A stretch of DNA of 64,000 nt from an uncultured Armatimonadia bacterium (lineage in GTDB: Bacteria; Armatimonadota; Zipacnadia; Zipacnadales; UBA11051). The stretch lies in NCBI GenBank assembly GCA_964622325.1, contig CAZUOJ010000005.1:583-64582 (forward strand), given 5' to 3'. Shown piece after piece: positions 8,901-33,682 of the stretch (positions are counted from its first letter, which is position 1; every line of letters starts with the position of its first letter). The translations under genes were made by a program, and so were the position numbers. The notes under the pieces were generated by a model that was not told the origin of the DNA, ran no database searches, and was given only the letters and a program-made list of their open reading frames with translations.

Positions 8901-9762
8901 CACGCCGCCGCCCTCTGAAACACAGGGCGAGCCTGTACTCTGGAAAGAAGCTTTTCAGCCCTTTGAGACAGCGCCGCGCTATTATTGGGATGAAAGAGAT
9001 ACAAAATGGGTGCTGAATGCGGAAAAATTGCTGGCACTGCCGCTGCCCGAAGGGGGGATTGTGCTGGCTTCTCAGGCTCCGGAAGGCTATGCAGGAATGA
9101 CGCATTTTTTCCCCTATAATCCGGAATTTCGTTATTTTCAGGCCAGCCTCCGGGCCATTGAGGGCGAGGGCTATCGCTGGACGAATATAAGCTTAAATGA
9201 CGGCTCGGGCAAACTGCCAGTACGAACGGCTGTCCACACGCGGCTGCCGGGGCTATATACAGTAGATACGCATTATCTGCATGAGCAATTTCGCCAAGGG
9301 ACACTAAAACGGGCGTTTGTGTCTGTGTTTGTGGCAGGCTCGGGACGGAATGAAGATGGCAGTGTGCGACAGGGGCCCCGCTTTACATTTGATTTTTTGC
9401 AGCTAGTCCGCCGTCCCACAAACGGGCTGATTATCACAATGGCGGACGGCTCGCCTGTGCCGCCGGCTTTGAAAGCCGGCGATACATTGCTGTATCGTGT
9501 GTATCTGGAAAAGCCAGCCCAGGATGTTGTCGTGGAGACATTGGGCGGAGCTGGCCATGAGCCCTTGCTTATCAATCGCGAGCCGTCCGTGCAGCTCTGG
9601 CCTGTGGGGGATAAGGACGGCCGGCAGTGGGCGGCGTTAGTGACGCTGGGCCCCGGCACCAGCAAATTCACGCCTCAGGGCTATCCTGTGCTCTTTCGGG
9701 CTGTCATTACAGGCGGCGCTTTGCCCGCATTGTATGTCACAATGGATGTGACATTTGAATAG
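5908..9762 (+). CDS. Secreted multidomain putative glycoside hydrolase: CBM9-like N-terminal domain, TIM-barrel core, discoidin/F5-8-like module
   Basis: Signal peptide. CBM9/DOMON-like motifs (IQLDGKLEEPAWQQA, DEEALYVGIEC, DDCVEIFL). Barrel motifs LLGYYLADEP and DILNPDPY. Discoidin-like WLEIALPEAKNIGRVVLY. Confidence 0.65.
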   Translation: MRKWAFWALVFIFSSVVLAAPTAIAIRRQGEIQLDGKLEEPAWQQAPWHGDFVSASAAVEGQNPPAAVQTRFKVLFDEEALYVGIECDEPQLDKIVARYTEHDQDVYQDDCVEIFLAPSSDGRYYYHFVINSKGAYFDDFGADYGLVHAKLWEFPLQVGTALDPAAQKWRVEARIAFAGLDIRESAPPEWLFNVTRERYAGGAQELSTWSPLKGNFHAPRLFGKLTGLKADFRRFAWNIAAPQITISGDGSGRHQLSLKTNITNNTAQSRRILLSAHPFLRPEAAVQSEPQDLAAGATALFALPPVMLAGSPRQAVIQFNILDADTKQPLKIAVKHLDTEYRPLSLDIIQPNYRQNIYATQNVSEIIFRVTLAPDVAAQSAQIQYSLLNAAGQIIREGKAAKGQWGAPLKLEAARLPQGIYTLRARALNATGQTIHEIATTIRKLPPAQGSEVRIDEKGNILVNGQPKIFIGWYGSIPTEDPRPDVVALQNVQTPVVLIGPDPKPVREAFARGVYSIVSIEPGRLYHTFSWWRNPQITLHQEITKQDAPSEEFISYLKQLVDCVKNEPGLLGYYLADEPEINNARSAYLEAIYQRMQELDPYHPVFITNDTLDGIVTHGYRACDILNPDPYSPEPEYVPNFMKRCQEVLRRGQTIMMTPWHSSGQAHFMTAWGTAPPYSYRTMRMQYLQALAYGCRGFTGYTSAFFMPEIELRYGLPHIWREVRLLEPALANPLEKPLAEADAEMITWAGRGGAHIYLIVANHKPGTRRVKISCPALAPAKQLYVVSEGRIVPVTKGSFTDRFAPGEARIYTTNPQAAQLPTMQEIEKELAERKAASAKPGNLLHYARGIRARASEGYYAPWFHQYYYYACNGLTDDLGWHLSHTDKPAWLEIALPEAKNIGRVVLYTPNLRDYDLQFQGPEGRIVVAEIRGNAREVAEHHFQPPIPTLKLRLTALAVRGGEGTKNAIVREIEAYEQPGAEPPTPVKAVETGAPPLVFTPPPSETQGEPVLWKEAFQPFETAPRYYWDERDTKWVLNAEKLLALPLPEGGIVLASQAPEGYAGMTHFFPYNPEFRYFQASLRAIEGEGYRWTNISLNDGSGKLPVRTAVHTRLPGLYTVDTHYLHEQFRQGTLKRAFVSVFVAGSGRNEDGSVRQGPRFTFDFLQLVRRPTNGLIITMADGSPVPPALKAGDTLLYRVYLEKPAQDVVVETLGGAGHEPLLINREPSVQLWPVGDKDGRQWAALVTLGPGTSKFTPQGYPVLFRAVITGGALPALYVTMDVTFE

Positions 9763-9811
9763 ACTGATTGGATATACAGGATTGTCAGCCCAATTTCCTT
9801 TTAGCTCTTGA

Positions 9812-12800
9812 ATGCGAGGAATGAAGGACAGCATGATAGGATTTGTGGCTTTTGCTCTGGCATTAGCGAACATCGTATGGGGGCAGGCGCTTTCGCTTTC
9901 GCCACAGCCGAAAGGCGCGCCGGGAGAATATATCGCTGTGCCGCTATTGCCCGCGTGGGCGCACATTGTCAACAGGGCGGGACAAGCGCAGGCTGTGACG
10001 ACATGTTCGCCCGAGATGGCGCGTGCGCAATATGGGGGCTATCCGTCCGCCGGCGTGCCGCAAGAAGGGAAATTAGAATGGAGGCTGGCGGGAAATATAC
10101 AGGGCTCCTTTTATGTGTATTTTCTCGTGCGGACAGGGCATCAATTGGGATACGAATATCTCCATGCATATATTGGGGAGCTGCAGGGACGTCCGATAGA
10201 AATGCAATTAGAAGCGGAATTCCCGCCGCTGCGTGTCTTTCATAGCGCGCAGGGGGGCTGGGGCCATGATATAGGATGGCTGCGCTCAGCGCATCCTTTA
10301 CAGCTGCAGCCGGGCCAGCGCCTGACGCTGAGCTGCACAGAGCCGTATGCATATGTGTCGCTGTGCCTGCTAGTGCCGGCCGCGGTGCAGCCGCGGCCGG
10401 CTTTACGGGAGCTTTTGCGCGTGCTTCATTTTCAGCTTGAAGATTATCGTTTGCTGAGGCAGCGCGTGGGGGAAATATTCCCGGATTTGCAAAAGATATG
10501 TGAACAGATGCAGCGCGAATGGCAGGAGCCCTGCCGCCAATTCACACGCTTTCAAAAGGCGCTGCTCCGGGCTTCCGAAAAAAGGCTGGACGGGCCACAA
10601 CAGGCAGAAGCCCTTCAGGCTTTATCTGAAATCCTAAAAAATTTGCATGAGAGCGTTAAGCGCGCGGAAGAAGCCAATGTCCGTCTCCTGGGGCCCGCTT
10701 TAGCCCGAAAACGCCAGGAGCTGTGGATTCGCGAGGCAAAATTGCGTCTGCTTCCGGCCCAAGATTTTGCGGGCCGGGAGGCCGAATATGCCCGCAGCGT
10801 CGCACAGCGATATTTGCAGGCGGCGGAACGCCTCCGTACGCCCCGGACAGAAGAGGCCTTAGAAAGGTTGGCGACATATTGCTGGCGAGCCGCAGAGTTT
10901 TTAGCCCAGGCGGAAGAAAAACGACAAAGAGCCCCGAAAGAGCCCTCGCGTGCTGTGGCGAAGGCTTTTGTTCCTCCTCTGAAGCCTCATCCGCGGCAAA
11001 AAGTGCTGCTGAACGGCGTGTGGGAGCTGAGTCTGGAGGGCACAGCAGAAGCGCCGCCGCAAGGGGGCTGGCTTCCTGTGCCTGTGCCCCATGGGGATTT
11101 GAAGCAGGCGATGGGGCATTTTGTGACAGAGGGGCATTATTGGCCGCCCCGAAAAAATAGCGTGTGGCTGCGGACACGCTTTACAGTGCCGAAAGAAATG
11201 GCTGGGGGCGCTATTTTTTTATGTTTTGACGCCGTGTTTCATCTTTGCGAGGCTTATGTGAATGGCGTGTTTGTAGGCCGACATATCGGCGGCTTTGATC
11301 GATTTGAATTTGAGATTACGCCGTATGTGCAGCCAGGGGCAGAGGCGGAGCTTTTGTGCTATCTATATGACACATCCTACACAGCGCTTTCCCCCTCGCC
11401 GCTAATCAGCATCCGGGCGGGCTTTGCTGAAGCATTGCAGAAATCCTCGTGGCTGCAAATTCGGAAATACGAAGGCTGGCTGGCCGAGCCCAATCATTAT
11501 GTTGTGTCTGATTTGTGGGGCGGGCATTTTCTGGGCATCTGGCAGGATGTGTCCTTAGAGTCACGGGCGCCCGTGTGGACAGAAGAAGTGCTGATTATGC
11601 CTTCAGTGCGTCAGCATATGCTTCGTGTGCGGACACGCCTGCAGGCGCTGCCGGCGCGTGCCAAAACAAAGCCACATTGTGCTATTCTCCTTCGCCAAGA
11701 AGTATTGACGGAGGACGGGCAAATAGTGTTGCGGCTGCCGGAACGGAAGGCAAAGCTTGCAGCAGAGCCTGTGTGGCTGATGACGCAAAAAGCGTGGGCC
11801 CATCCGAAGTTATGGGGCATCGGGGGCGTCTATGGAGAGCCACAGAATCTGTATATTTTGCGCACGCGACTGTATGTAGAAGGGCAAGGGGAGCCCATAG
11901 ATGTGCGCTACGATCGCTTTGGCTTTCGGGAATTCTGGATCGAAAAAGGGCAATTTTGGCTCAATGGCCAGCGATTGCCGCTGCAAGGAGGAGGCAGCTG
12001 GTATCTGCAAGAAAGCAAATTGCCTCATGGAAATCGCTGGTGGGCGTTGCGTTTTTATGGCTTAGAGCGCGGGATGAATGTGAATATTGAGCGCTGGCAC
12101 AGGCAGGGGGATGTGGGCGGAGATTTGCTGGCTGTCGCCGATGAGCTGGGAATGCTTAATGAGCTGGAAGCGCCGTATTGGGGCGTATATGGGATTCCGG
12201 ATATTATCGGACGCGAGGATTGGGATGATCCTGTATGGACGGAAAATGTCACAGGCTATTATCAGCATCTTGTGCGCAAGCGTTTCAATCATCCCAGCGT
12301 TGTCTTATGGTCCGTGGAAAATGAAACATTCATTGCGCCCGTACGGCCCGAGCATATGCTGCGACGCTTTTTTGCATTCGGCCAGGCGATTAAACAGGAA
12401 GATCCCACACGGCCTGTTACATATCACGCTATTGCCAACGGAGGCTATGTTCAATCATATCCGGAAATAGAGATTGTCAATTGGCATTATGCCTCTTTAG
12501 AGCAGCTGCGGGACTGGCAAAGAAAATGGGGCGGGCGGCCCTGTATTTTGGGAGAATTTCAGAATTATGAATTGCTGGGATATCTGCTGAATAATCGGCG
12601 GGATGTGGCCAGGGAATACATGGGCAAACTGCAAGCGTGGATAGAAGAAACATGGCAGGCGCACAAGGAGATCGGGCTGTCCGGAGCGCTGTATTTTCTG
12701 CCGTACACGGCGGGCTTAGTGAGCACGGCGCGGCCGGAATGGATGGGGCCCTGGGGAGATAAGCTGGAGCCTGTGGAAAAAGCGCGCGTCATCGAATCGG

Positions 12801-13285
12801 GCCTGGATAAGGGCCGTGCCGTAATTTATGCGAAAGTGCCCATTTTGTGGCCCAGCCGCTCGGGCCCAGGCATCAAATGTGATTTTTTGCACACAGGCCT
12901 CGGGCATGTTTCGCTGATTAATTGGTTTGATCCCAAGCGGCCTGCCGCCACGCCCACGCCTGTGGCAGAGACATTGCGGCGTTGCTGGCAGCCTATGCCC
13001 GAACTAAGCGCAGAAACAGCCCCGGAAGTTATTGTAACAGTAACAAGCGGCGGACAGCCCGCCCCAGGCCTTCCTGTTGTGGCTATTCCCGTCGCGGGCC
13101 AGCCGGCTTCCATCACAGGCGCCATAACAGATTCCGCTGGAACTGCGTGGCTTGTGCTGCCCGCCACAGGCGCTTATGAAATTCGCTGCGGCAGCCAGGC
13201 GGTGCGCTGGGAAGCCCGCCGCCTGTCCCGTCACGCGCCGCCGGGCTGGGCGCATATCCCGCGGCTGTCCCTGGCGCTGGATTAG
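9812..13285 (+). CDS. Secreted glycoside hydrolase family 2 protein with a long N-terminal extension
   Basis: LNGVW and FDAVFHLCEAYVNGVFVGRHIGGF (GH2 sugar-binding domain), RFGFREFWIEKGQFWLNG, NHPSVVLWSVENE (acid/base) and ILGEF (nucleophile). The true start could be a few codons downstream. Confidence 0.85.
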   Translation: MRGMKDSMIGFVAFALALANIVWGQALSLSPQPKGAPGEYIAVPLLPAWAHIVNRAGQAQAVTTCSPEMARAQYGGYPSAGVPQEGKLEWRLAGNIQGSFYVYFLVRTGHQLGYEYLHAYIGELQGRPIEMQLEAEFPPLRVFHSAQGGWGHDIGWLRSAHPLQLQPGQRLTLSCTEPYAYVSLCLLVPAAVQPRPALRELLRVLHFQLEDYRLLRQRVGEIFPDLQKICEQMQREWQEPCRQFTRFQKALLRASEKRLDGPQQAEALQALSEILKNLHESVKRAEEANVRLLGPALARKRQELWIREAKLRLLPAQDFAGREAEYARSVAQRYLQAAERLRTPRTEEALERLATYCWRAAEFLAQAEEKRQRAPKEPSRAVAKAFVPPLKPHPRQKVLLNGVWELSLEGTAEAPPQGGWLPVPVPHGDLKQAMGHFVTEGHYWPPRKNSVWLRTRFTVPKEMAGGAIFLCFDAVFHLCEAYVNGVFVGRHIGGFDRFEFEITPYVQPGAEAELLCYLYDTSYTALSPSPLISIRAGFAEALQKSSWLQIRKYEGWLAEPNHYVVSDLWGGHFLGIWQDVSLESRAPVWTEEVLIMPSVRQHMLRVRTRLQALPARAKTKPHCAILLRQEVLTEDGQIVLRLPERKAKLAAEPVWLMTQKAWAHPKLWGIGGVYGEPQNLYILRTRLYVEGQGEPIDVRYDRFGFREFWIEKGQFWLNGQRLPLQGGGSWYLQESKLPHGNRWWALRFYGLERGMNVNIERWHRQGDVGGDLLAVADELGMLNELEAPYWGVYGIPDIIGREDWDDPVWTENVTGYYQHLVRKRFNHPSVVLWSVENETFIAPVRPEHMLRRFFAFGQAIKQEDPTRPVTYHAIANGGYVQSYPEIEIVNWHYASLEQLRDWQRKWGGRPCILGEFQNYELLGYLLNNRRDVAREYMGKLQAWIEETWQAHKEIGLSGALYFLPYTAGLVSTARPEWMGPWGDKLEPVEKARVIESGLDKGRAVIYAKVPILWPSRSGPGIKCDFLHTGLGHVSLINWFDPKRPAATPTPVAETLRRCWQPMPELSAETAPEVIVTVTSGGQPAPGLPVVAIPVAGQPASITGAITDSAGTAWLVLPATGAYEIRCGSQAVRWEARRLSRHAPPGWAHIPRLSLALD

Positions 13286-13459
13286 CCTGAAGCAAAGGCT
13301 GCGGAAAAGCCTAAAGAGCAAAGATGGATAAGGAAAGAATGAATGTACATACGCAAAAATGCAAATTGTGTCTACAGAGCCAGCAAAAGCAGGCGAGCAA
13401 AAGCTGATTTTTAGTTCCATCTCAAAAGCGTACATCCCAAAACAAAGGGGCGATGGGAA

Positions 13460-15379
13460 ATGTCATCAGAATTGTGGCAATGGGGGATTATTGCGCTGCT
13501 TATAGGAGGAGGGCTTCTGGGCAGCCAATACAGCCTCGAAGCGCAACAGCTTCCGCCGGGCTTCGTTGATCATGGGCCTGTGGCTCCTGTAGGCATGTCC
13601 GCTTGGGGCGGGACATGGGCTACGGCTGATAAGGAGGGCCGCCGCCTTGTGTTCATCAAGCTTTGGGCAGGCGGCAACAGCTCCTATTTGTTCGTGGAGG
13701 CGCAGACGGGCAAAACAGAACAAATCAATCCCGGAATTGGCGGATTAGGGGCTTATCTCGTGCAGCTTTCTTCTAACAACAAAATCTATGACACGATGGG
13801 AGAATGGCTGCTGGAAATTGATGTGCCCACACGGGAAATTCGGCGAATTGGCAAAATCCCCTCCGGGATGGCTCTGTCGTTTTTATTGTCGCCGGAGGGA
13901 ATCCTCTATGCGGGCATCTATCCCAGCGCCACATTAATTTCCTTCAATCCCAAAACAGGCGAATATCGGAATCACGGTCCGCTGAATCAGGAGGAATGGC
14001 CGCAATATTTGCGGCCGTTGGCGCTGGATAATCAGGGCTGGCTGTATGGCGGCATTGCCATCAAGGCTGCGCAGATTGTGGGCTACAATCTGCAGACAGG
14101 GGAAAAGCGGACATATATTCCTGAGGCGCAGAGGAGAAATGGCGGGGGGAATGTATATCAGGGCGTGGATGGGAATGTGTATGCAGAGGCGCCGGGCTGG
14201 GGCTGGCATAGACTCTCGGGGGGAGAGTGTGTGAAAGTGGATAAGCCCGCAGCGCGCGCCCCCAGCCGCGCTCCGGATGTTTTTCCAGACGGCGCCCGGC
14301 TTGTGAGGGCGGATGTGCCGAATCGGACGCTGTATATCATGGAGCCGGGCGGGCAAGAGCCTGTGCGTGTGCGATTTGAATATCAAAGCCCGGGCGTGCT
14401 GATTTATTCGCTGGTCGCAGGCCCTGAGGGGAAGATTTACGGGGCGACAGGCGCGCCCTTGCGGATCTGGCGCTTTGATCCCGCCAGTGGGCAAATAGAA
14501 AATTGGGGGCTGGGGGATCATGGCGGACATGTGAATCAGTGGGTGCGGCAAGGCAATAAGCTATACGGGGGCGTGTATAGCTCGGGCTCCTTAATTGAGC
14601 TGGATCCCACACAGCCTATTGAGGACGCGCCCATACGGGAAAGCAAAAATCCGCGTCATGTGCATGGCTTTGAATATGGCTTCGGGGGGAATCCGGATAT
14701 GTTTGGGCGGCCGCATGCGCTTTTGGCTCATCCCGACGGCCGCCATGTGATTATGGGCGGCAATCCGGCGCGGGCGCGTGTGGGCGGCGGGCTGCTCATT
14801 TATGATGTTCAGACGGGCGAATCCAGCGTGCTGAAGCCGGAAGAGCTTGTGCCAGATCAGGGGATTTATGCCTTAGCGGCGCTGCCAGATGGAGATTTGA
14901 TTGTAGGCACAACAATAGAAGCCGCGACAGGCGGGCAAACTGTCGCCAGAGAGGCTTTGCTGTATCGGCTGGATTGGGACACAAAACGCGTCATTGGACG
15001 CTGGCCCCTCAAGCCGCGAGCGGCGGCCGTGCGGGATCTTCTCGTGGGGCAGGAGGGGCTCGTCTATGGGCTGGCCACAGGCAATCGCTTCTTTGTGTTT
15101 GATCCCCAAACGGAGCGCTTTGTGCATGATGAAATCGTGGAAGCTTATGGGGCTTTGACGGGCAGCCAGGCGCCACGCACAATGGCTTTTGGGCCTGACG
15201 GGGGCATTTATGTGCTGTTTCGGGAGGCCGTTGCCCGTTTTGATCCGAAGACATTCGCCCATCGGGAAATTGCCCGGCCGGGCGTGTCCATTACGGCCGG
15301 AATTGTCATTCACAATAATCGGCTGTATTTTGCCGCTGGGCCGCGGCTAATGAGCTATGATTTGGGGCAAGCCCGTTAG
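13460..15379 (+). CDS. Secreted double beta-propeller protein of unknown function
   Basis: Signal peptide and repeated blade motifs (SPEGILYAGIY, DNQGWLYGG, GPEGKIYGAT, GQEGLVYGL, GPDGGIYV). Confidence 0.7.
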   Translation: MSSELWQWGIIALLIGGGLLGSQYSLEAQQLPPGFVDHGPVAPVGMSAWGGTWATADKEGRRLVFIKLWAGGNSSYLFVEAQTGKTEQINPGIGGLGAYLVQLSSNNKIYDTMGEWLLEIDVPTREIRRIGKIPSGMALSFLLSPEGILYAGIYPSATLISFNPKTGEYRNHGPLNQEEWPQYLRPLALDNQGWLYGGIAIKAAQIVGYNLQTGEKRTYIPEAQRRNGGGNVYQGVDGNVYAEAPGWGWHRLSGGECVKVDKPAARAPSRAPDVFPDGARLVRADVPNRTLYIMEPGGQEPVRVRFEYQSPGVLIYSLVAGPEGKIYGATGAPLRIWRFDPASGQIENWGLGDHGGHVNQWVRQGNKLYGGVYSSGSLIELDPTQPIEDAPIRESKNPRHVHGFEYGFGGNPDMFGRPHALLAHPDGRHVIMGGNPARARVGGGLLIYDVQTGESSVLKPEELVPDQGIYALAALPDGDLIVGTTIEAATGGQTVAREALLYRLDWDTKRVIGRWPLKPRAAAVRDLLVGQEGLVYGLATGNRFFVFDPQTERFVHDEIVEAYGALTGSQAPRTMAFGPDGGIYVLFREAVARFDPKTFAHREIARPGVSITAGIVIHNNRLYFAAGPRLMSYDLGQAR

Positions 15380-15465
15380 GGCTATGGGGAAAACGAGGCC
15401 ACATGCCTCAACGCTTTGGGCATTCTTTTTCGTAAATCTTAAAGCGAAGGAGATTAGCATTCATA

Positions 15466-18204
15466 ATGAGCCGAAGCATATGGATTTTTTTTGTGGAGCT
15501 GGGGATTGCCGCGCTCAGCTGGAGTCAAGCGCCGCCCGTTGTGTTCAACGCGGGCTTTGAGGAAGGGCAGGATAAGCCAGAGGGCTGGAGCTGGCGCCTC
15601 GGCGAAGAGGGGCAGGGAGAATTTGAATGGACAGAGCGGCTTTCGCATTCGGGACGAAAATCTTTCCGCGTCAAATTTGTCGGTCCCGTGGGCTACACGG
15701 CGCTGGATAGCAGCGATATTGAAGTGACGCCGGGCAAAACATATCGCATCTCCGCCTGGATTTATCCTGCCCGGCCCGTGCGGCGGGGCGTATATTTTAT
15801 GATTTCGCAATACAAGCCGAACGCCCCAAGCGAAGATTTGCCCAATACATTTGGCGCCACAAACGCGGTGTTTGCCCCGCAAATGTGGCAGCCCATTACA
15901 GTCACAGTCTCTGTGCGCGCGGGAAATAATCGGCTGCGGATTCATTGCATTCAAGCGCTGGCGTCGTCCGAAATTTATTGGGATGATTTTACGATACAGG
16001 AAGAAACACAGGAGGAAAAGCCGCGTTATGAGCCGCCGCCGCTGGAGGAGGTGCCGCCGCTTACGCCGGAGCTGCGCGCGCATCTGGCGCGACGCCCGCG
16101 CGCGACAGCTAAAATTGAAGGGCGGGGCGCTCGCCCGCGGCTGATTGTAGATGGCAAGCCGTTGCCTTTTGCCTGGCATGTATGCGCTTTCGGCGGGCCC
16201 GCTTTCTTTGAGCGGGCGCATGTGCGAGATTTCAAGGAGGCCGGGGTGCGGATTCATCTGGCGCCGCTTGTGCTGGGCAATGGCCTGTATGGCGCCCGCG
16301 GGCCGTGGCTGGGCCACAAGCAATATGATTTTTCCGTTGTGGATGAAATCCTGTGGCGCGTGCTCCGTGTAGATCCTGACGGCTATGTGATTTTTTATAT
16401 GTGCTGCGATCCGTATCCGGAATGGGGCAAAGAGAATCTGGAACATGTCACAGAAGATCAAAACGGCCAGAAGGCGATTGTGTGGATGCATCCGCTCCGT
16501 TGGGGCGGAGAGCCGGGCCCAAATGAGCGTTATGGGCCCAGCATTGTCTCCTTAAAGCTGCGGGAGGATGTGGCGGAGACATTGCGCCGGCTAGTGCGTC
16601 ATGTCGAAAGCAGCGAAGCAGGCAAAGCTGTCATTGGCTATCATGTGGCAGGCTTTAATGATGGGCAATGGTTCCAGTGGGCTTCTTTGGATCCTTCAGA
16701 TTTGCATCTGGCGGATTATTGTCCAGGCGCGCAGGAAGCTTTTGGCCAATGGCTCCGGGCACGCGGCAAGAAGCCTGCGCCCGTGCCGCCCGCGGATATG
16801 CTGTGGAATGAGCGTGTGTTTGTGGATCCGCAAACGGAGTCGCTTGTGGCGGATTATCAGCGTTTTTATTCGGAGGGCGTGGCGGAAAACATCATGGCGC
16901 TGGCCCGTGTGCTGAAACAGGAAAGCAAGCGGCCCATTATCTGCGGGACCTATTATGAGGACATCACATGCAACAGCGCCAATCACATCGCCCTGGGGCG
17001 CTTTTTACAGTCCGAGGCGCTGGATTATCTGGCAGGGCCGGCGGCCTACAATATCCGGATGGCGGGCTATCAGGGGGCTGTACGGAATGTATTTGGCTCC
17101 ACGCTTCTGCATGGCAAGATGTATCTGACAGAGCAGGATTGGCGGTCGTGGCGCTCCTATCCCAATACGCCGGAGCAGAATTTCGCGTGGGGGCGGGCGG
17201 AGACAGCCGAAATCCATAACGCGATGGTGCGGCGAGAATGCGGGATGATGCTGGCCTTCGGATTAGGCACATGGTGGTACGATATGGGCGGAGGATGGTT
17301 CAGTGATCCCCATATCATGGCCGGCATTGCGGAAGCGGTGCGCGCTTTCACACAGGAGCTTGCGGATAAGGATAGTCCGCAAGCGGATCTGGCCGTGATT
17401 GTTTCTGAAGAAAGCGATAGCTATGTGCGAATGCGCTACGGAGGGCAATATCGTTATCAGGGGATTGTGCGGCAGATCGAGGAGCTGAATACAGCGGGCG
17501 TGCCTTATCGGCTGTATTTGCAGTCTGATCTGGGACGTGTGTCACTGCCTGAACATAAAGCCTATCTGTTTTTGAATCCGTATGTGATTACAGCTGAACA
17601 GCGCCGTGCCCTTGAAAGCCTCAAGCGAGACGGGAAATTGCTGGCCTTTGTCCACGCCCCGGGCTTGATCGGGGCCGCTAATCCCGCGCAGACAGCTTCA
17701 GCCTTTACAGGAATAGCGCTGGCGCCCCTGTCCAGTCCGCCGCCTTCGCCTCCGCTGGCTATCAATCCCCATCATCCTCTGCTGGCGGGGCTGGAGGAAG
17801 AGGCGTTAATGACGCCGACAGCGCCAGCTGAGGCGCTGCAAGTCGTGGATCCGCAGGCCTCGCCTTTAGCGTTCTATGCGCGGAGTTCGGCCGTGGGCTG
17901 CGCGGCGCGGGATTTTGGCCGCTGGAAAAGTGTGTTCATCGGCAGCCCGGGCATTAGCGCCGGCTTTGCCCATAATCTGGCCCGCTGGGCAGGCTGCTGG
18001 ATAGCCGCGGCGCCGGGAGACGCCGTTTACGCCAGCCAGCATTTTCTCACAATCCATGCGCTCTTTCCCGGGCATAAGATTTTGCGGCTGAAACAGCCGG
18101 CAAAAGTCACAGATTTAACGACAGGGCGCGTTATCGCCTCCCGCACTGCTACCTTAGAGCTGGAAATGCAGCGCGGAGAGACTCGCTGGTTCCGCCTGGA
18201 TTAG
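15466..18204 (+). CDS. Secreted GH42-like (beta-galactosidase-like) protein with an N-terminal CBM4/9-like domain
   Basis: Signal peptide. NAGFEEG...PEGW and VTPGKTYRISAW (CBM-like). Barrel motifs IGYHVAG, DYLAGPAAY and YLTEQDWRS. C-terminal class I glutamine-amidotransferase-like trimerisation region (GVPYRLYLQSDL). Confidence 0.6.
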   Translation: MSRSIWIFFVELGIAALSWSQAPPVVFNAGFEEGQDKPEGWSWRLGEEGQGEFEWTERLSHSGRKSFRVKFVGPVGYTALDSSDIEVTPGKTYRISAWIYPARPVRRGVYFMISQYKPNAPSEDLPNTFGATNAVFAPQMWQPITVTVSVRAGNNRLRIHCIQALASSEIYWDDFTIQEETQEEKPRYEPPPLEEVPPLTPELRAHLARRPRATAKIEGRGARPRLIVDGKPLPFAWHVCAFGGPAFFERAHVRDFKEAGVRIHLAPLVLGNGLYGARGPWLGHKQYDFSVVDEILWRVLRVDPDGYVIFYMCCDPYPEWGKENLEHVTEDQNGQKAIVWMHPLRWGGEPGPNERYGPSIVSLKLREDVAETLRRLVRHVESSEAGKAVIGYHVAGFNDGQWFQWASLDPSDLHLADYCPGAQEAFGQWLRARGKKPAPVPPADMLWNERVFVDPQTESLVADYQRFYSEGVAENIMALARVLKQESKRPIICGTYYEDITCNSANHIALGRFLQSEALDYLAGPAAYNIRMAGYQGAVRNVFGSTLLHGKMYLTEQDWRSWRSYPNTPEQNFAWGRAETAEIHNAMVRRECGMMLAFGLGTWWYDMGGGWFSDPHIMAGIAEAVRAFTQELADKDSPQADLAVIVSEESDSYVRMRYGGQYRYQGIVRQIEELNTAGVPYRLYLQSDLGRVSLPEHKAYLFLNPYVITAEQRRALESLKRDGKLLAFVHAPGLIGAANPAQTASAFTGIALAPLSSPPPSPPLAINPHHPLLAGLEEEALMTPTAPAEALQVVDPQASPLAFYARSSAVGCAARDFGRWKSVFIGSPGISAGFAHNLARWAGCWIAAAPGDAVYASQHFLTIHALFPGHKILRLKQPAKVTDLTTGRVIASRTATLELEMQRGETRWFRLD

Positions 18205-18564
18205 CCAGAGGCTTTCCCACATGATAAAAGCTGCAGTTCCGGCCGCAATTTTGTCGTCCAATCATCCGCAGGAGTGCGGGACCAGGACACATTAATGGCA
18301 ATCCTGCGCCGCGGAAAAATTTAGTTAAAGCATCAGCAAGCAAACACGGCCGTCTTCTGGATATACACAATAACACAAAAAATAGAGTTTGATTTTTGAT
18401 TTTCTCCACACAAAAAGGCAAAGCAAAAAGGAAGAGAGAATATGTAGAAAAAGCCGTTATTAAAAGAAAGCAAGAGCATATTGAGCTGAAGCTATCCAAG
18501 AGCGAAAGCGAAGGGACACAGGCAATTCTCTTGTCTTTGAAAAATTTCCCACAAGGAGGGCTAG

Positions 18565-21500
18565 ATGATGTGGCGTTGGGCGTGTCTGCTCTGTGTCATT
18601 ATAGCCTGGGGGACAGCGGCGAGGAGCGATATTGTGCTCTATGTGTCGCCACAGGGGCGAGATGAATGGACAGGCAAACGGCCAGAGGCGAAAGCGCCCG
18701 ACGGGCCTTTCGCTACGCTTGCCCGTGCGCGGGAGGAAGTGCGCCGGCTGAAAGCGGCCGGCCCGCTCACGCAGCCCGTGAAAATTGTCCTGCGCGGCGG
18801 ACGCTATCTGCTGTATGAAACATTTGCCTTGACAGCCGCCGACAGCGGCACGCCCCAGGCGCCCATCACATATATTGCTTTCAAGGGCGAAAAGCCTCTT
18901 CTGGCTGGCTGTCGCCGCGTGACGGGCTTCAAGCCCTGGAAGGACAAAATTCTGGTGGCGGAGCTGAAGGGGACGCCCCTGGAGGGCGTGCGCTTCCGGC
19001 AATTGTTCTGTAACGGCGAACGGCAAATTATGGCTCGCTATCCGAATTTAGATCCGAAGGATCCCCATGGAGGAGAATGGGCGTATGTGGCGGCTGTGGA
19101 GGGGCCCAATGTACGCGATAGATTCTATTATACGGAGGATGTGGAGAAGAATTGGACGCATGTAGAGCGGGCAGAAGTGGGCATCCATCCGGGCTTTGAT
19201 TGGGCCTGGAACATCGTGCCCATCAAAGCCGTGGATCGGGAGGAAAAGCAAATTATTCTGGCCCGCAATGTGTCCTATGATTTGCGGATTGGGGATCGTT
19301 ATTTTGTGCAGAATATTTTGGAAGAATTGGATTCTCCGGGAGAATGGTATCTGGATCCGCAGGAGAGTCGCCTGTATTTCTGGCCTCCTGTAGCGGACAT
19401 CGAGCGGGCCGAAGTGCTGGCGCCAGTTGTGGGGGATTTAATCCGGCTGGAGGGCGCCTCGGATGTGACATTACGAGGCCTGACAATCGAAGGCTGCGAC
19501 GGGACAGGCGTCGTGCTGCAAAATTGTGAGCGGAGCCTGATTGCGCAAAGCGTGATCCGGAATACAGGGAGCTGGGGCATCAGCATCAACGGCGGCCATG
19601 ACAGCGGGGCGAAAGGCAATGACATATATGCGACAGGCGCTGGAGGCATTTCGTTGTCGGGAGGCGATCGGCAGACGCTGGAGCCAGGCCGCAATTTCGC
19701 GGACAATAATTATATCCATCATGTCGCTGTGTTCGCCAAAACATACAACACAGGCATCAATGTCAGCGGCGTAGGCAATATCGCCCGCCATAATCTCATT
19801 CATGATACATATCATGCCGGAATGACACTATCCGGCAATGAGAATGTTGTGGAATACAATATCGTCCATCACACGAATTTGGGCTCTGCGGACACAGGAG
19901 GGATATATTATTGTTCGCGCGATTTTACAATGCGGGGCAATAAGATACAATTCAATATTTTTCATCATTGTGGGGGCTTCGGCAAAGACAATTCGTGGGC
20001 GCCCGTCCAGGGGGGGAGAGTCAGCTTCAGCTATCCGCATTTCACATGGGGCATTTATTTAGACGATCCGACGAGCGGGACGCTTGTTTACGGCAATATC
20101 CTGTGGGCGGTGCCTATCTGCGGCCTGCATAATCACGGCGGGCGGGATAATGTGTGGGAAAATAACATCGTCGTGGATGCGCCGGCTGTCAACGCCGGGA
20201 TGCTATGGGACGGCTGGATCGAATATCCTCAGATTATCGAAAAGCTCAAGGCCGTGCAATACGAGGGCTCGCCGTATTTGCGGCTGTATCCCGAATTAGC
20301 GCATTATGATATCAGCCATCCTTCAGGAATGACGGGCTTACGATTTTTGCGCAATATCTTCTATTACACAGCGGAGGGGAGCCGCTGGCTGCGGGAAAAG
20401 AACGCCCAGAGCTGGCAGGGCGGCCAATTGCTATACAGATATTTTACGGACGACATAGGCTTCAAAGAAAGCCTATTTGATTACAATCTCGTCTGTCCGC
20501 CGCCAGGCGTGGAGCTGAAAATCAGTTTTCAGCGCCAGCCGGAGCCGCACAAGCTTTTGTCATGGACGGAATGGCAGGCTACAGGGATGGATGTGCATTC
20601 TGTCATCGGGGATCCGATGTTTGTGGATCCCGCGAAGCATAATTATGCGCTCAAGCCCGGCTCTCCGGCGCTGAAATTGGGCTTCAAGCCCATTCCGCTC
20701 GAGAAAATTGGGCCGTATGCCGATGAGCTGCGCGCGTCCTGGCCGATTGTGGAGGCGCCAGGCGCCGCCGCGCTGGGCGATTTCACAACACAGCGCTTTT
20801 TCAAATTGCCAGGCTACGAGCCTGTGAAGGCGGAGCTTTTTACGCCGCGGCAGGGGGCGCCCAATTTCTTCGCCAAATTGGCGGCAGGCAAGCCTGTCAA
20901 AATCGCCTATTTTGGCGGAGGCATTCATCCTCCTGACGGCTGGCGCAGGCAGATTCTCCATTGGCTGCGCGAGCGCTATCCCCATGTGGAGATAAGCGAA
21001 ATAGACGCCTCCATCTGCGATTGTTCCCGCGGCTCCGGCTTCAGCGTGTATCGTTTTGAGCAGGCCGTGTTAACGAAGCAGCCGGATCTTGTGCTTGTGG
21101 ATTTTGCCGCTGATGATCAGACGGCGAATGTGGACAGCATCTGGGCGGCAATAGAGGGCGTCGTGCGGCAGGCGCGGCGCGCCAATCCGCAGCTGGATAT
21201 CATTTTTGTCTATGCTTTTCGGGCGGGCGATGAGAAGGATTTTGCGGAGGGCTTCTGTCCCCAGGCGATTTCGGCTTATGAAAGAATCGCCGCATATTAT
21301 GGGATTCCGAGCATTAATATGGCCTTTCGAATTGCGCAATTAGCGCAGCAGGAGCGACTCATCATTAAAGCCACGCCGCAGCAAGCACAAAATCCAGAAG
21401 GAAGGCTGATCTTCTCTTTAGATGGCGTGCGGCCGACAGCTGATGGCAATCGACTTTACGCGGAAGTGATAATAGAGGCGTTGAGGGCGCTCAGCCAAAA

Positions 21501-22023
21501 CACGACGCCCAAGAAGCATCCTTTGCCCAAGCCCTTCTTCCGGGGCGCGATGGAGCGCGCCCGGCTGTATCCCATCACGCCAGAAATGCTTTCGGGGCCC
21601 TGGGAGAAGCTGTCGCCGGATAATGTTTCCGGGCGGAATTTTGCCAATCATTTCCGTGAAATCTGGCTCACACGGACGCCCGGCGCCAAACTTACATTTC
21701 GTTTTCGCGGCACAGAGGCCAGCATTTTCAATCTGATGGGGCCTGACACAGGCATTGCCCGCGTGACAGTGGACGGCCGCGACGCGGGGCGGCGCCAACA
21801 AGTGGATCAATGGGCCTATTATCAGCGGCTGAGCGCCTTGCCGCTGGCCTCCGGCTTGCCTGATACGGAGCATACAGTCACAGTGGAATTGCTGCCCGAT
21901 GTGCCCGATCGAAGCGTGGCCATTGCAGCAGCCAAAGAAGCCAATCGTTATCGGGCGGAAGATTTTGACGGTGTGGCTTTCCGCTTTGGCTGGCTGCGGA
22001 TTAATGGGGAATTATTGCCCTGA
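18565..22023 (+). CDS. Secreted right-handed parallel beta-helix protein fused to a degenerate SGNH/GDSL domain
   Basis: Signal peptide. LYVSPQGRDEWTG...DGPFATL start, many Asn-ladder repeats (NNYIHH, HNLIHD, YNIVHH, FNIFHH), and a C-terminal SGNH-fold region (KIAYFGGGI, PDLVLVDFA, DGVRP). Confidence 0.8.
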   Translation: MMWRWACLLCVIIAWGTAARSDIVLYVSPQGRDEWTGKRPEAKAPDGPFATLARAREEVRRLKAAGPLTQPVKIVLRGGRYLLYETFALTAADSGTPQAPITYIAFKGEKPLLAGCRRVTGFKPWKDKILVAELKGTPLEGVRFRQLFCNGERQIMARYPNLDPKDPHGGEWAYVAAVEGPNVRDRFYYTEDVEKNWTHVERAEVGIHPGFDWAWNIVPIKAVDREEKQIILARNVSYDLRIGDRYFVQNILEELDSPGEWYLDPQESRLYFWPPVADIERAEVLAPVVGDLIRLEGASDVTLRGLTIEGCDGTGVVLQNCERSLIAQSVIRNTGSWGISINGGHDSGAKGNDIYATGAGGISLSGGDRQTLEPGRNFADNNYIHHVAVFAKTYNTGINVSGVGNIARHNLIHDTYHAGMTLSGNENVVEYNIVHHTNLGSADTGGIYYCSRDFTMRGNKIQFNIFHHCGGFGKDNSWAPVQGGRVSFSYPHFTWGIYLDDPTSGTLVYGNILWAVPICGLHNHGGRDNVWENNIVVDAPAVNAGMLWDGWIEYPQIIEKLKAVQYEGSPYLRLYPELAHYDISHPSGMTGLRFLRNIFYYTAEGSRWLREKNAQSWQGGQLLYRYFTDDIGFKESLFDYNLVCPPPGVELKISFQRQPEPHKLLSWTEWQATGMDVHSVIGDPMFVDPAKHNYALKPGSPALKLGFKPIPLEKIGPYADELRASWPIVEAPGAAALGDFTTQRFFKLPGYEPVKAELFTPRQGAPNFFAKLAAGKPVKIAYFGGGIHPPDGWRRQILHWLRERYPHVEISEIDASICDCSRGSGFSVYRFEQAVLTKQPDLVLVDFAADDQTANVDSIWAAIEGVVRQARRANPQLDIIFVYAFRAGDEKDFAEGFCPQAISAYERIAAYYGIPSINMAFRIAQLAQQERLIIKATPQQAQNPEGRLIFSLDGVRPTADGNRLYAEVIIEALRALSQNTTPKKHPLPKPFFRGAMERARLYPITPEMLSGPWEKLSPDNVSGRNFANHFREIWLTRTPGAKLTFRFRGTEASIFNLMGPDTGIARVTVDGRDAGRRQQVDQWAYYQRLSALPLASGLPDTEHTVTVELLPDVPDRSVAIAAAKEANRYRAEDFDGVAFRFGWLRINGELLP

Positions 22024-22124
22024 AGAGACGTTCACAGGCTTATAGCTTCTTTCGAACAGAAAGAACAAAGATATACGCGAAAGGCTCAAACAAAAGCAAA
22101 ACAGCAAAGAAAGGCAGAACAGCG

Positions 22125-23120
22125 ATGTTACGCGTGTGCGTTATTGGGATGGGGCCTATCGGCAATCGGCATGCCGATATGTATAAGGAGCATCCGCAGG
22201 CGGAATTAGTAGGCGTATGCGATATTATTCCGGAGCGGGCTGATGCGGCTGCGCGCCGACTGGGCGTGCCAGCCTATTATGAGGCGCCCACGATGCTGGC
22301 GGAACTTCAGCCTGATATTTGCAGTGTGGCGACAAGCGGCGAGGAATATGGCAGCGATCATGCGGAGCCGACGATTCAGGCGCTAGAAGCGGGCTGTCAT
22401 GTGCTGTGTGAAAAGCCCATTTCCAATTCCATTGCCGATGCCGAGAAAATGGTCGCGACGGCGCGCCGCCTGCGTCGCTGTCTCGCCATCAATTTCAATC
22501 ATCGCTTCAATCCGGCGCATCGGCTGGCGAAACGCTGGATCGAAGAGGGCCGGCTAGGGCATCTTTTGTTTATTAATATGAGCATCTGGATTTTGAATCC
22601 GCGCGAGTCTTCGCCTTATTTTCATATCAAAGCCTTGCATCCCCATTCTGTGGATATTATGCGTTATTTTTGTGGCGACATTGAGGCCGTGCATTGCTTT
22701 GCGACGAAAGCTCCCGGACGCCAAATTTGGTCCACAGCGCAATTTAATTTTCGCTTCAAAAATGGCGTTGTCGGCTCCTTGACGGGCAGCTACGATATTG
22801 CCCGCGGGCATCCAATGGAACGCTGTGAAGTCGCCGGCACGGGCGGACGTTTTGTGATTGAAGATATTTTTAAGGAAGTGACATTGTATCCCGCAGACAG
22901 CCTGGAGAAAATTGTGTATACAGAGCCCTCGCTATTTGGCGGAATGCGGGATTTTGTGGATACATTCCGCGCGCGCATTCATGCCTTTGTCGATCAAATT
23001 GCCGCCGGCGTGTCGCCAGAGGAGATTGACGGTTCCGGAGAAGACGGCCTGGCCGCGCAAAAAGTCCTCGCCGCCGCCATTGAATCTTTGGAAACAGAAT
23101 CGGTTGTGTATGTGAAATAA
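22125..23120 (+). CDS. Gfo/Idh/MocA-family oxidoreductase
   Basis: VIGMGPIG Rossmann motif, GCHVLCEKP motif, and FNHRFNP. Confidence 0.9.
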   Translation: MLRVCVIGMGPIGNRHADMYKEHPQAELVGVCDIIPERADAAARRLGVPAYYEAPTMLAELQPDICSVATSGEEYGSDHAEPTIQALEAGCHVLCEKPISNSIADAEKMVATARRLRRCLAINFNHRFNPAHRLAKRWIEEGRLGHLLFINMSIWILNPRESSPYFHIKALHPHSVDIMRYFCGDIEAVHCFATKAPGRQIWSTAQFNFRFKNGVVGSLTGSYDIARGHPMERCEVAGTGGRFVIEDIFKEVTLYPADSLEKIVYTEPSLFGGMRDFVDTFRARIHAFVDQIAAGVSPEEIDGSGEDGLAAQKVLAAAIESLETESVVYVK

Positions 23121-23184
23121 AAGGAGCACACGAAAAGACAGAGTCTTTATCAGCAAAAAGTACAAGACAAAAAGGAGCATCATA

Positions 23185-24675
23185 ATGAATCTTGTTTTTC
23201 TCGTGAGCGACACATTGCGCTGGGATTATTTAGGCGCTTATGGCAATAGCTGGATTAAAACGCCGTATCTGGATCAGCTGGCCAAAGAAAGCGTTGTGTT
23301 TGAGGAGGCTTTCGCCGAAGGGCTGCCCACATTGCCGGCGCGTCGCGTCATGCAGACAGGGCGGCCCATTGTCCCCTTCAAATATGTGCCGCAAAAGAGC
23401 GATATGGTGCAGCTGCACGGCTGGCACGGACTTTTTGATGAGGATGTCTCGGCAGCGGAATGGCTGCGCGAGCACGGCTATGTGTGCTGCTTCATTACAG
23501 ATGTCTATCATATGATGAAGCCGGGCAAGAATTTTCATCGCGGCTTTGATTGCTGGCATTGGATCCGGGGACAGGAAGACGATCCGTATATGCTGCGCGA
23601 TGAGGCGCAAGTGCGGGAGCTTTTGGCGCGGGCGGCGCCACAGGAGCAATTCCGGCAACGCCACTGGCTTATCCAGCATTTAATGAATCGCAAGGATTGG
23701 GAAGGCGAAGCGGATACGCTCGTGGCGCGTGTGATGCAAAAAGCCGCCGAATGGCTGCACAATTATTCCTTAGAGGCGCCGTTTTACATGTGGATTGATT
23801 GTTTTGATCCCCATGAGCCCTGGGATCCGCCGCTGGAATATGCCCGTTTGTATGATCCGGATTTTGATAGCTTGGACGGACTCGTGCCGCCCAGCTTCAC
23901 AAGCCAAATGACAGAAGAACAAATTCGCAACACTTTAACTGCTTATGCCGGAGAAGTTACGCTGGTGGATCGCTGGATCGGGCATTTGCTGGAGACATTG
24001 CACGAAACAGGCCATTTGCAGGACACATTGATTGTGTTCACATCGGATCATGGCTGCATGCTGGGCGAACAGGGCGAAATGCATAAGGGCATCAGCCGGC
24101 TGCGCAATCAATGCACGCAACTGCCGCTGCTTATTCGCCATCCGCAGGGCCTGGGGGCGGGCACGCGCGTACGAGGCCTCGTGCAGCATACGGATATGTT
24201 GCCGACGGCCCTGGCTTTAATGGGCATTCCCCCTCATGAACGGATGCTGGGGCGCAATGTCTGGCCGTGGCCGCTGGCAGAAGGAGCCGCCGCCTCCTCC
24301 GCCTCTACAGCTCCCGCGGCGTCCTCGCCTCCAGCTGCTCTCCAGACGCCCGCAGCTCGCGATTATGTTGTAACGGCGTTTGGGCCGTATGCGTCCTATC
24401 GCACAACGCGCTGGAATTATATTACAGTGTGGGATCCCGAAAGCCCGGAAAAGCGCCCGCCGGAGCTGTACGATTTGCATGCCGATCCGGAGGAACTGAC
24501 GAATGTGGCGGCGGATTATCCGGAAGTAACGGCTGAATTGCGGGAGGCGCTCCAGGAGCATCTGCGGGCTCAGGCGCCTCTGACGCAGGGGCATTTAGGC
24601 GGCACCGCCGATCTGGATGTGCTGGGCGAATTGGGCATCAAAATGAGCTTTGACGCCTTGCCGCCCCTGCGCTAG
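23185..24675 (+). CDS. Sulfatase-like hydrolase (alkaline phosphatase superfamily) with Thr at the nucleophile position
   Basis: LVSDTLRWD, PTLPARR (T in place of C/S of [CS]xPxR), DPHEPWDPP, YAGEVTLVDRWIG, TSDHG, and ELYDLHADPEE. Confidence 0.85.
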   Translation: MNLVFLVSDTLRWDYLGAYGNSWIKTPYLDQLAKESVVFEEAFAEGLPTLPARRVMQTGRPIVPFKYVPQKSDMVQLHGWHGLFDEDVSAAEWLREHGYVCCFITDVYHMMKPGKNFHRGFDCWHWIRGQEDDPYMLRDEAQVRELLARAAPQEQFRQRHWLIQHLMNRKDWEGEADTLVARVMQKAAEWLHNYSLEAPFYMWIDCFDPHEPWDPPLEYARLYDPDFDSLDGLVPPSFTSQMTEEQIRNTLTAYAGEVTLVDRWIGHLLETLHETGHLQDTLIVFTSDHGCMLGEQGEMHKGISRLRNQCTQLPLLIRHPQGLGAGTRVRGLVQHTDMLPTALALMGIPPHERMLGRNVWPWPLAEGAAASSASTAPAASSPPAALQTPAARDYVVTAFGPYASYRTTRWNYITVWDPESPEKRPPELYDLHADPEELTNVAADYPEVTAELREALQEHLRAQAPLTQGHLGGTADLDVLGELGIKMSFDALPPLR

Positions 24676-24843
24676 CCCCGATAGTCCCCTGAGGCTTCGC
24701 CAAGCGTATCTGGCCCTAAAAGGGCTTCCATGAGGCGGCAAGCAGCTGGGCATTTTCTCACAACAGAAATGTTTCCGCAGAGGCAGTTTCTTGGCATGGC
24801 AGAGAAAAAGCGCAGAAAAGCCATCAAGGCGAGGATACGATAA

Positions 24844-25371
24844 ATGAGCAGGCTTCCGGTGGGGATTGTGCAGATATATACAGGGGACGGCAAAGGCAAG
24901 ACAACGGCCGCTTTGGGGCTGGCAGTGCGGGCGGCAGGAGCAGGCTTACGTGTGTTTATTGGCCAATTTTGCAAGGGCCGCGAGACGGCCGAGCACAGGG
25001 GGCTGGCGCTTTTGGGAGAGCGCGTCACAGTGCGCCACAGCGGCCGTTGCTCCTTTATTACAGGGCCGCCGACGCCCGAAGATAAAGCCGCCGCGCAACA
25101 TATGTTGCAGCTGCTGCGTGAGGCCTTGCAAAGCGGCGCCTATGATATCGTCATCGCGGATGAATTGAATGTTGCCATCGCGCTGGGCCTTGTGACGCTC
25201 GCGGATGCCCAAGAGCTGTTGGCGTTGCGGCCTGCCCATGTGGAGCTTGTGATTACAGGCCGCAACGCTCCGTCCGAATTGCTTCAACAAGCCGAGCTTG
25301 TGACAGAAATGCGCGCTCTTAAACATCCCTATGCCCAGGGACTAAAAGCACGCTCAGGCATTGAATTTTAA
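24844..25371 (+). CDS. cobO: Cob(I)yrinic acid a,c-diamide adenosyltransferase (CobO/BtuR)
   Basis: IYTGDGKGKTTAALGLAVRAAG, IADELNVA, LVITGR, and VTEMRALKHPY..G....GIEF. Confidence 0.92.
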   Translation: MSRLPVGIVQIYTGDGKGKTTAALGLAVRAAGAGLRVFIGQFCKGRETAEHRGLALLGERVTVRHSGRCSFITGPPTPEDKAAAQHMLQLLREALQSGAYDIVIADELNVAIALGLVTLADAQELLALRPAHVELVITGRNAPSELLQQAELVTEMRALKHPYAQGLKARSGIEF

Positions 25372-25525
25372 ATTGGCCTCCTTCTGGCCGCCTGATGGCT
25401 TATGTGCAATATTCATTTTTCTGCGCTTTTTCCTTTCTGGCTTTCGGGGCTTTTCGGAAATACAAGCTGATCTGCTTGAAGCTGCGCCTGCAGGCCTCCA
25501 CGCCTCTACAGGCGAAGGCGGCTCT

Positions 25526-26312: not shown

Positions 26313-26362
26313 ATTCTTTAAGGCGCAAAGCTTTTTATCGGCCTTTAATCAGGCTGCTGGCA

Positions 26363-33668: not shown

Positions 33669-33682
33669 TTGTGTCCCCTTTT

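Follow-up and report, generated by a model that had tools for sequence, protein, structure and literature searches.

Depletion of the trinucleotide ACC/GGT in genes and intergenic DNA of a lineage of uncultured Armatimonadia

Results

A conserved glycosidase motif encodes four unavoidable GGT sites

The DNA analysed here (the window) is a stretch of 64,000 nucleotides from an uncultured Armatimonadia bacterium (assembly GCA_964622325.1, contig CAZUOJ010000005.1). Positions 15466..18204 of its plus strand hold a gene for a 912-amino-acid CBM4_9 and GH42-like glycosidase, as judged from a Pfam match to CBM_4_9 and from homologs carrying PF02449 (Glyco_hydro_42). The trinucleotide ACC, or its complement GGT, occurs 14 times in this gene, and six of those sites are forced, meaning that the encoded amino acids leave no synonymous way around them. 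An earlier note on this DNA had picked out four forced GGT within 17221-17300, and all four are in frame with the gene as described: one at 17226..17228, where ATG-GTG encodes Met587-Val588 (phase 2, no synonymous alternative), two starting at 17273 and 17276 within TGG-TGG-TAC (Trp603-Trp604-Tyr605; 17273..17278, phase 1), and one at 17297..17299 in TGG-TTC (Trp611-Phe612; phase 1). Three further forced sites named in that note also hold up in their in-frame context on the plus strand. These are a Trp-Phe junction (TGG-TTC) in the gene of a CBM9 protein, with GGT at 8492..8494, a second TGG-TTC (Trp-Phe) at 16670..16672 and a TGG-TAT (Trp-Tyr) at 19346..19348; the note had numbered them 8491, 16669 and 19345, from the first base of TGG.

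In an alignment of 21 homologs, with identity down to 37%, Met587, Trp603, Tyr605, Trp611 and Phe612 are invariant, Trp604 is at least 90% conserved, and Val588 is the consensus residue without being invariant. The best-conserved block of the glycosidase protein in this alignment reads NAMVRRECGMMLAFGLGTWWYDMxGGWF. The four sites persist because invariant residues of this core motif are encoded there. Their density is ordinary: under random placement, the 95th percentile is four sites per 80 bp, equal to the cluster, and two segments of an OPT transporter gene are just as dense. The cluster is a by-product of a much larger depletion of ACC/GGT.

ACC/GGT is depleted in every reading phase and between genes

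By trinucleotide counts over the whole window (1..64000), ACC/GGT is depleted about 12-fold and ACT/AGT about 4-fold. The 64 kb contain 86 ACC and 89 GGT, 175 sites in all, where base composition predicts roughly 1100 of each and about 2200 in total (observed-to-expected ratio, o/e, 0.08). No other trinucleotide comes near so low an o/e; the next are ACT/AGT (0.27) and GTA/TAC (0.34), and the AC/GT dinucleotide stands at 0.54. Compared with related genomes, each of the eight 4-mers that contain ACC is depleted (ratios 0.03-0.15), so the avoided unit is an asymmetric 3-mer. TACC/GGTA is the most depleted 4-mer in that comparison (ratio 0.03), and ACCC/GGGT is among the most depleted words in the window. 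The residual sites comprise 29 ACCA, 24 ACCG, 21 ACCT and 12 ACCC.

The 40 called genes cover about 91% of the window; a gene outside this set (37991-38767) contributes a further forced site and a further avoidable one. On the sense strand of the 40 genes, ACC occurs 38 times in frame and six times out of frame. GGT is found 13 times in frame, 38 times as xGG-Txx (28 forced) and 74 times as xxG-GTx (12 forced and 62 avoidable, e.g., GCG-GTN). Forced sites therefore make up 41 of the 175 survivors (24%), or 32% of sense-strand GGT. Our null model was a within-gene shuffle of synonymous codons, which keeps the already skewed codon usage. It predicts about 849 out-of-frame sites (ACC 106 and 178, GGT 192 and 374), against 118 observed, 40 of them forced. 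The ratio of observed to shuffle-expected sites is 0.02 for out-of-frame ACC (6 vs. 283) and 0.14 for avoidable GGT, and the depletion is 6- to 50-fold in each reading phase.

The forced share under this null is about 4%, so forced sites are clearly over-represented among the residual ones. The claim that survivors sit at junctions the protein cannot avoid thus stands as an enrichment, but not as a rule: three quarters of the 175 are avoidable, among them the 38 in-frame ACC, the 13 in-frame GGT and the 62 xxG-GTx sites. Intergenic DNA is more depleted than genes, with 6 sites against 173 expected (0.035). Only four survivors lie outside genes; one of these, on the minus strand at 56096..56098, is part of an AGGTG that resembles a Shine-Dalgarno sequence and precedes the pyrG start by 7 nt. 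Survivors cluster and are not over-dispersed, with 13 gaps of 12 bp or less against 5.7 ± 2.2 expected, which leaves a cooperative nuclease needing closely spaced sites unsupported.

Codon choice depends on the next codon, and avoidance is graded

Where a junction can be encoded without the motif, it usually is. The earlier note had proposed such rerouting for Leu-Val, Glu-Val and for NAY codons before Pro, and codon counts by next codon bear this out. NAY codons end in C in 222 of 532 cases before A and 213 of 858 before G, in 23 of 476 before T and in only 2 of 572 before C. The next base has no effect on the C-ending share of the control codons TTY and ATY. Before Val, Leu is encoded by CTG in 7% and by TTG in 0% of cases, compared with 58% and 15% before other G-starting codons, while CTT and CTC together account for 80% rather than 10%. 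The same comparison gives 92% vs. 48% for Glu GAA, 97% vs. 53% for Lys AAA, 89% vs. 26% for Gln CAA, 60% vs. 12% for Pro CCT, 59% vs. 5% for Val GTT and 2% vs. 16% for Gly GGA. Codon endings preferred before Val (GTN) rank T > C > A > G. Since Glu, Lys and Gln codons can end only in A or G, AGT is taken there as the lesser evil. GGG-T and CGG-T are at about 1%, with xGG-T swapped for xGC-T or xGT-T and not for xGA-T.

Avoidance falls in the order ACC/GGT > ACT/AGT > ACG, with ACA tolerated. Expressed as log odds relative to ACA, the scaled cost is about 5.3 for ACC, 2.6 for ACT and 0.8 for ACG. Read as selection, these values would put the scaled per-site cost S, with ACA as the reference, at about 5 (ACC), 2.6 (ACT) and 0.8 (ACG). 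Among Thr codons, in-frame ACC makes up 4% and ACT 8%; GGT makes up 1% of Gly codons.

Proteins have lost about half of the dipeptides that force the motif

Six dipeptides are unavoidable sources of the motif: Met-Val, Trp-Val, Trp-Phe, Trp-Tyr, Trp-Cys and Trp-Trp. The window proteins contain 40 of them, where residue shuffles predict 89 ± 8.3. Met-Val (7 vs. 23.5 expected), Trp-Val (5 vs. 23.6) and Trp-Tyr (6 vs. 14) are short, and Trp-Phe is at expectation (15 vs. 14). The same dipeptides in reverse order, counted as a control, number 86 where 80 are expected. The forced set is at expectation in the non-depleted relatives, with 109 against 106.6 ± 9.4 in 69 proteins. Met-Val or Trp-Val has become Met-Ile or Trp-Ile at 7 of 13 orthologous positions, and in columns invariant among the outgroups the commonest replacements are Val to Ile (32, with 10 in reverse) and Asp to Glu (29).

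In the depleted lineage, and only there, amino-acid replacement has eliminated about half of the forced sites; the rest are what the proteins cannot give up. This supports the idea, raised in the earlier note, that each single site is costly without being lethal, but the tolerance of forced sites that it invoked needs qualifying.

The purge is confined to two sister lineages

The housekeeping block at 41506..63479 (rplI, dnaB, purD, purE, purF, pcrA, pyrG, surE, serA and others, by NCBIfam matches) was the basis for our ortholog and sister-lineage comparisons. Its per-gene o/e is 0.00-0.11, and it is syntenic with contigs L086-L092. By PyrG and other housekeeping genes, the window falls among uncultured Armatimonadota; GCA_021372615.1 is one of the nearest non-depleted relatives. 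In the window lineage (PyrG 100% identical), the o/e of ACC/GGT is 0.04-0.05 at a GC content of 54%, and a sister lineage with 97% identical PyrG has 0.06-0.09, also at 54% GC. The six next relatives, which are still syntenic (PyrG 82-87%), have an o/e of 0.78-0.99 and a GC content of 65-69%, and 79 unrelated genomes range from 0.59 to 1.30. The purge is therefore confined to the window lineage and its sister, and arose on the branch leading to both.

The same branch saw a fall in GC content at third codon positions (GC3), which is 0.61 in the depleted lineage and 0.86-0.90 in the relatives. In orthologs of 23185-31406 and 51912-63479, Asp makes up 3.9% of residues in the depleted lineage and 5.1-6.0% in the relatives, and Glu, Ile and Tyr are higher. 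This shift in GC3 and amino acids could be temperature adaptation, a general AT shift or a link to AC/GT avoidance.

All compared parts of the window (1-11190 and 48662-64000) are 99.6-100% identical to independent assemblies (L081-L085, L095-L097) from at least seven sludge metagenome runs, which indicates a clonal population. At least 97% of sampled window words were found in 11 sludge runs from three studies, 86-90% in subsurface runs and smaller shares in hot-spring and digester runs. The sister lineage was present in four further samples, one of them a JGI assembly.

Upstream of pyrG, the non-depleted relatives have a toxin-antitoxin pair of the MNT/HepT (nucleotidyltransferase/HEPN) type (L090:9129-9772, L091:9126-9766, L092:9159-9781), and L090 also has an RHH/ParE pair downstream of pyrG. 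Both pairs are absent from this position in the window and in the sister.

Avoidable sites turn over quickly and new sites are scarce among strains

The window and its sister share about 90% nucleotide identity. Of all trinucleotides, ACC, ACT, GTA and GGT are conserved least between them, with Jaccard indices of 0.10, 0.21, 0.23 and 0.26, where 0.45-0.65 is typical. In 33 kb of aligned coding DNA, 16 forced sites are shared, one is found only in the window and none only in the sister. Avoidable sites in the same alignment comprise 16 that are shared and 87 that are not (37 in the window only, 50 in the sister only). Avoidable survivors are thus transient and forced survivors are long-lived.

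The assemblies of the window lineage are clonal and gave no usable single-nucleotide polymorphisms (SNPs) within the population. Four strains of the sister lineage, 0.07-0.66% apart, yielded 90 SNPs with the window as outgroup. Three SNPs create the motif, against 10.0 ± 3.0 expected if the same types of mutation fell at random positions (P = 0.0095), and one destroys it, against 0.61 expected. The spectrum of these SNPs is ordinary (52 of 90 are GC-to-AT transitions). Since destroying SNPs are near expectation and creating SNPs are too few, residual sites are not hypermutable and new sites are removed.

Ortholog comparison with non-depleted relatives, which the earlier note had suggested for separating mutation from selection, was informative in part. 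Fourfold degenerate sites are saturated (about 45% identical), so polarisation reports equilibrium preferences and not mutation paths. Resolved by phase, the fates of ancestral sites do show all types of substitution. In-frame ACC codons invariant among the outgroups have become ACG in 21 cases, ACA in 18 and ACT in 5, and remain ACC in 8. Ancestral xAC-Cxx became xAT-C or xAT-T in 83 of 95 cases. The note had taken a dominance of ACC-to-ATC changes as a sign against selection, which is misleading, as this is the sole synonymous route there. Ancestral xxG-GTx became TGT (14), AGT (10), GGT (9) or CGT (7), with Val replaced by Ile or Met in 13 cases. The base that changes is whichever base is free to change.

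Deamination products are not in excess in intergenic DNA, where the o/e is 0.81 for ATC/GAT, 0.29 for ACT/AGT and 0.96 for the AT dinucleotide. The intergenic o/e of ACN words rises from 0.06 for ACC through 0.29 (ACT) and 0.68 (ACG) to 0.96 (ACA), and that of GCN words falls from 2.08 for GCC through 1.63 (GCT) and 1.39 (GCG) to 1.28 (GCA). This mirror image might suggest A-to-G hypermutation. By direct counts, the share of G among non-A bases is 0.49 vs. 0.42 expected at NCC and unchanged at NCT, and the pattern is mostly a general GpC excess. Low synonymous divergence at NAY|C (1 of 142) was set aside as proof of selection; it is uninformative, being bounded by 2π(1-π) under either model.

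Palindromes, an exceptional transporter gene and a non-depleted island

The palindrome ACGT is almost as depleted as ACC, with 23 copies against a Markov expectation of 105 in the window and 4 against 51 in the sister; Thr is encoded by ACG before T in only 3% of cases. Relative to non-depleted relatives, the ratio is 0.08 for ACGT, 0.16 for GTAC and 0.17 for TCGA, the last two being about 6-fold lower. These lows may reflect ordinary restriction pressure from 4-cutters or may be part of the same phenomenon as the ACC/GGT depletion.

The OPT/YSL transporter gene at 29424..31406 (plus strand) has the highest residual density in the window, with 27 sites (o/e 0.38): 13 GGT and 14 in-frame ACC codons for Thr, of which the whole window has 38. 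Its identity to the non-depleted relatives is 88-90%. Recent horizontal transfer does not account for it: the gene is vertically inherited, being syntenic in the non-depleted relatives, and its fourfold sites are as saturated as those of its neighbours. It retains ACC in part because, when the next codon starts with T, ACC spares it the ACGT that an ACG codon would make.

To the left of the window, some 6.2-8.6 kb from its first position, a contig ends in an island of about 2.4 kb (L095:17400-19782). This island holds 61 ACC/GGT sites (o/e 0.5-0.9), has a GC content of 47-50% and adjoins fully depleted genes. Three independent assemblies agree on it up to each contig end. Its coding content is a CarboxypepD_reg-domain lipoprotein and an open reading frame of 112 amino acids, residues 40-93 of which match residues 8-61 of the Cas12b of Candidatus Hydrogenedentes (PDB 9KLN, E = 5e-16). 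From its sequence, the island looks like recently acquired DNA with a truncated cas12b N-terminus, and the contig break may lie at a CRISPR locus.

The glycosidase gene belongs to a carbohydrate-active cluster (2127-37000) that includes CBM9, GH2, GH42-like and GH141-like beta-helix proteins, a sulfatase, GDSL and BNR esterases and an AXE1-like esterase. Several proteins of 600-1200 amino acids in the cluster have no Pfam match (2127-5651, 31662-33668).

Discussion

We think it probable that the window lineage is under continuing, genome-wide purifying selection, weak at each site, against the duplex word 5'-ACC-3'/5'-GGT-3'. Selection would be acting on the DNA itself, as the depletion extends to both strands, to every reading phase and to intergenic sequence. 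The motif would be removed through whichever base changes at least cost, leaving the sites without a synonymous escape as a long-lived remainder. Forced sites would also be lost by conservative replacement, chiefly Val to Ile, where the protein permits. The cost would be similar in genes and between genes, small per site and graded for near-cognate words, and a T on the 5' side would worsen it. The earlier note had favored selection over a single deamination pathway, and the reading phases, intergenic DNA, strain SNPs, site turnover and protein changes all agree with that preference.

The source of such a cost would be a factor that acts on DNA at specific sequences, for example a nickase, a restriction-like activity or a site-specific lesion. 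A narrower version of this idea strikes us as possible, though rather doubtful: that the lineage coexists with a DNA-acting factor whose specificity spans about 3 bp, ACC/GGT being its main target and ACT/AGT a weaker one, and that the genome has purged its sites and rewritten parts of its proteins instead of being protected by modification. Candidates would be nickases, glycosylases and modification systems, either the lineage's own or belonging to a phage or other mobile element.

Several observations count against selection of this kind. The SNP test is small, as its 90 SNPs come from a single 17-kb region in the sister lineage, and equilibrium composition cannot strictly tell selection from hypermutability of all three motif positions. 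Intergenic DNA has a modest excess of G at NCC (0.49 vs. 0.42 expected), which leaves room for a mutational component. GC3 also dropped in this lineage (from about 0.9 to 0.6), with or without a link to the motif. The near-normal density of the island is tolerated, so a factor cannot act efficiently on every site, although a high local density that can be survived fits a weak cost per site. No nuclease, methyltransferase or prophage was found in about 102 kb of the window lineage and about 50 kb of the sister. Across these roughly 150 kb of two depleted lineages, there were also no restriction-modification genes and no HNH gene. Walking the contig left and right of the window gave only housekeeping and carbohydrate-active enzyme genes, plus the non-depleted island with its cas12b remnant. 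Scans of the window for tRNAs and Rfam families found nothing, and our literature search turned up no described trinucleotide purge or comparable case.

Neutral mutation pressure aimed at the motif is the most serious competitor, and we consider it unlikely. ACC/GGT would be hypermutable, through lesions and error-prone repair or as a replication-error hotspot, with no selection involved. The large compositional shift in the same lineage fits this, as do the intergenic GCN excesses, which rank in the same order as the ACN deficits, and hotspots consisting of an A followed by a run of C are documented in E. coli (PMC13250602). However, 35-fold hypermutation predicts roughly 8-20 motif-destroying SNPs where we found one, and SNPs that create the motif are under-represented. 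All three motif positions would have to be hypermutable to deplete every phase, and once the general GpC excess is conditioned on, little G-specific gain remains at NCC and none at NCT. A quite improbable alternative is that methylation of the cytosine in ACY followed by deamination, as at CpG and perhaps faster in a thermophile, makes the motif a hazard against which coding DNA is selected. Runs with the same or closely similar sequence do include hot-spring and digester metagenomes, NAC to NAT dominates at xAC-Cxx, and the replacement seen most often at forced sites is Val to Ile, a G-to-A change. Yet NAC to NAT is the only synonymous route at those junctions, the expected products are not enriched between genes, and 39 in-frame ACC became ACA or ACG while 5 became ACT. 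CGG-T and GGG-T were replaced by codons ending in C or T and not in A, and residual sites are not C-to-T hotspots, as far as the one destroying SNP in this small sample of 90 can tell.

The remaining explanations have much less in their favor. Toxins with 3-nucleotide RNA specificity exist, such as MazF, which cuts ACA, and an mRNA interferase cutting ACY or GGU could in principle drive avoidance at the RNA level. A slight asymmetry on the sense strand (44 avoidable ACC vs. 85 avoidable GGT) leans that way, but the word and its reverse complement are both depleted on the sense strand of genes on either strand, and also between genes, which points to duplex DNA; we judge an endoribonuclease very unlikely. 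Translational selection, in which ACC, ACT and GGT would be poor codons owing to codon preference and a lost or scarce tRNA-Thr(GGU), suits the low in-frame use of these codons and has, in our view, even less chance of being right. It is refuted by out-of-frame depletion, which exceeds in-frame depletion, and by intergenic DNA, which is the most depleted of all; in addition, GGC and GGT are read by one tRNA, yet their use differs 75-fold. Nothing was found in favor of an artefact of sequencing or assembly, which is hardly credible. The window is reproduced in independent assemblies and the sister in four more samples, reading frames are intact and the changes synonymous, and the neighboring island has normal motif density on the same contigs.

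The pattern resembles known systems in part. Like the avoidance of restriction sites, which are short palindromes, it is lineage-specific, affects both strands and both coding and non-coding DNA, is independent of frame and proceeds by synonymous rerouting. It differs in that the word is 3 bp long and non-palindromic, is depleted 12- to 25-fold, and that its avoidance reaches the amino-acid sequence. To our knowledge, there is no cognate enzyme for an ACC/GGT 3-mer, and we know of no report of host genomes avoiding the sites of HNH nickases. The terminase-associated HNH nickases of Firmicutes phages and prophages are the sole characterised enzyme group we found with the core G^GT/AC^C, which equals the avoided word; they include N.phiGamma (CG^GT), N.BsuW23I (BG^GT), N.phi105 (YG^GTY) and N.SauY74I (Xu & Gupta 2013, PMC3592412). 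When isolated, the nicking domain of N.phiGamma cuts ACTG (CA^GT) as well (PMC3592412), which parallels the grading of GGT over AGT seen here. Unlike our motif, these enzymes need a fourth base (ACCG, ACCV), and the residual ACCN sites have no such bias. CpG depletion also concerns a very short word, genome-wide in one lineage, with a compositional shift, but here the products of methylation and deamination are not in excess in unconstrained DNA, all types of substitution occur and residual sites are not hotspots. Replication-error hotspots, where an A precedes a run of C or a T follows a run of G, involve runs of at least three and A:T-to-C:G changes (PMC13250602). The strong depletion of ACCC/GGGT is in line with these, but every ACC is avoided whatever comes next.

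Avoidance of oligonucleotides is known for palindromes of 4-6 bp and for CpG; it is usually about 2- to 5-fold and leaves proteins untouched. The present case differs in being an asymmetric 3-mer, depleted 12- to 25-fold in one narrow lineage, with a dipeptide bias that lowers Met-Val and Trp-Val 3- to 5-fold. It offers a natural measure of how far selection at the DNA level overrides constraint at the protein level, and the contrast between forced and avoidable sites is a useful internal control. The depleted and non-depleted lineages are syntenic and close enough for their gene contents to be compared, so the cause should be findable. If that cause is an enzyme, its specificity would be among the shortest known. 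If the factor is encoded by the host, the near absence of ACC/GGT could mark self, and incoming DNA of normal density would be attacked.

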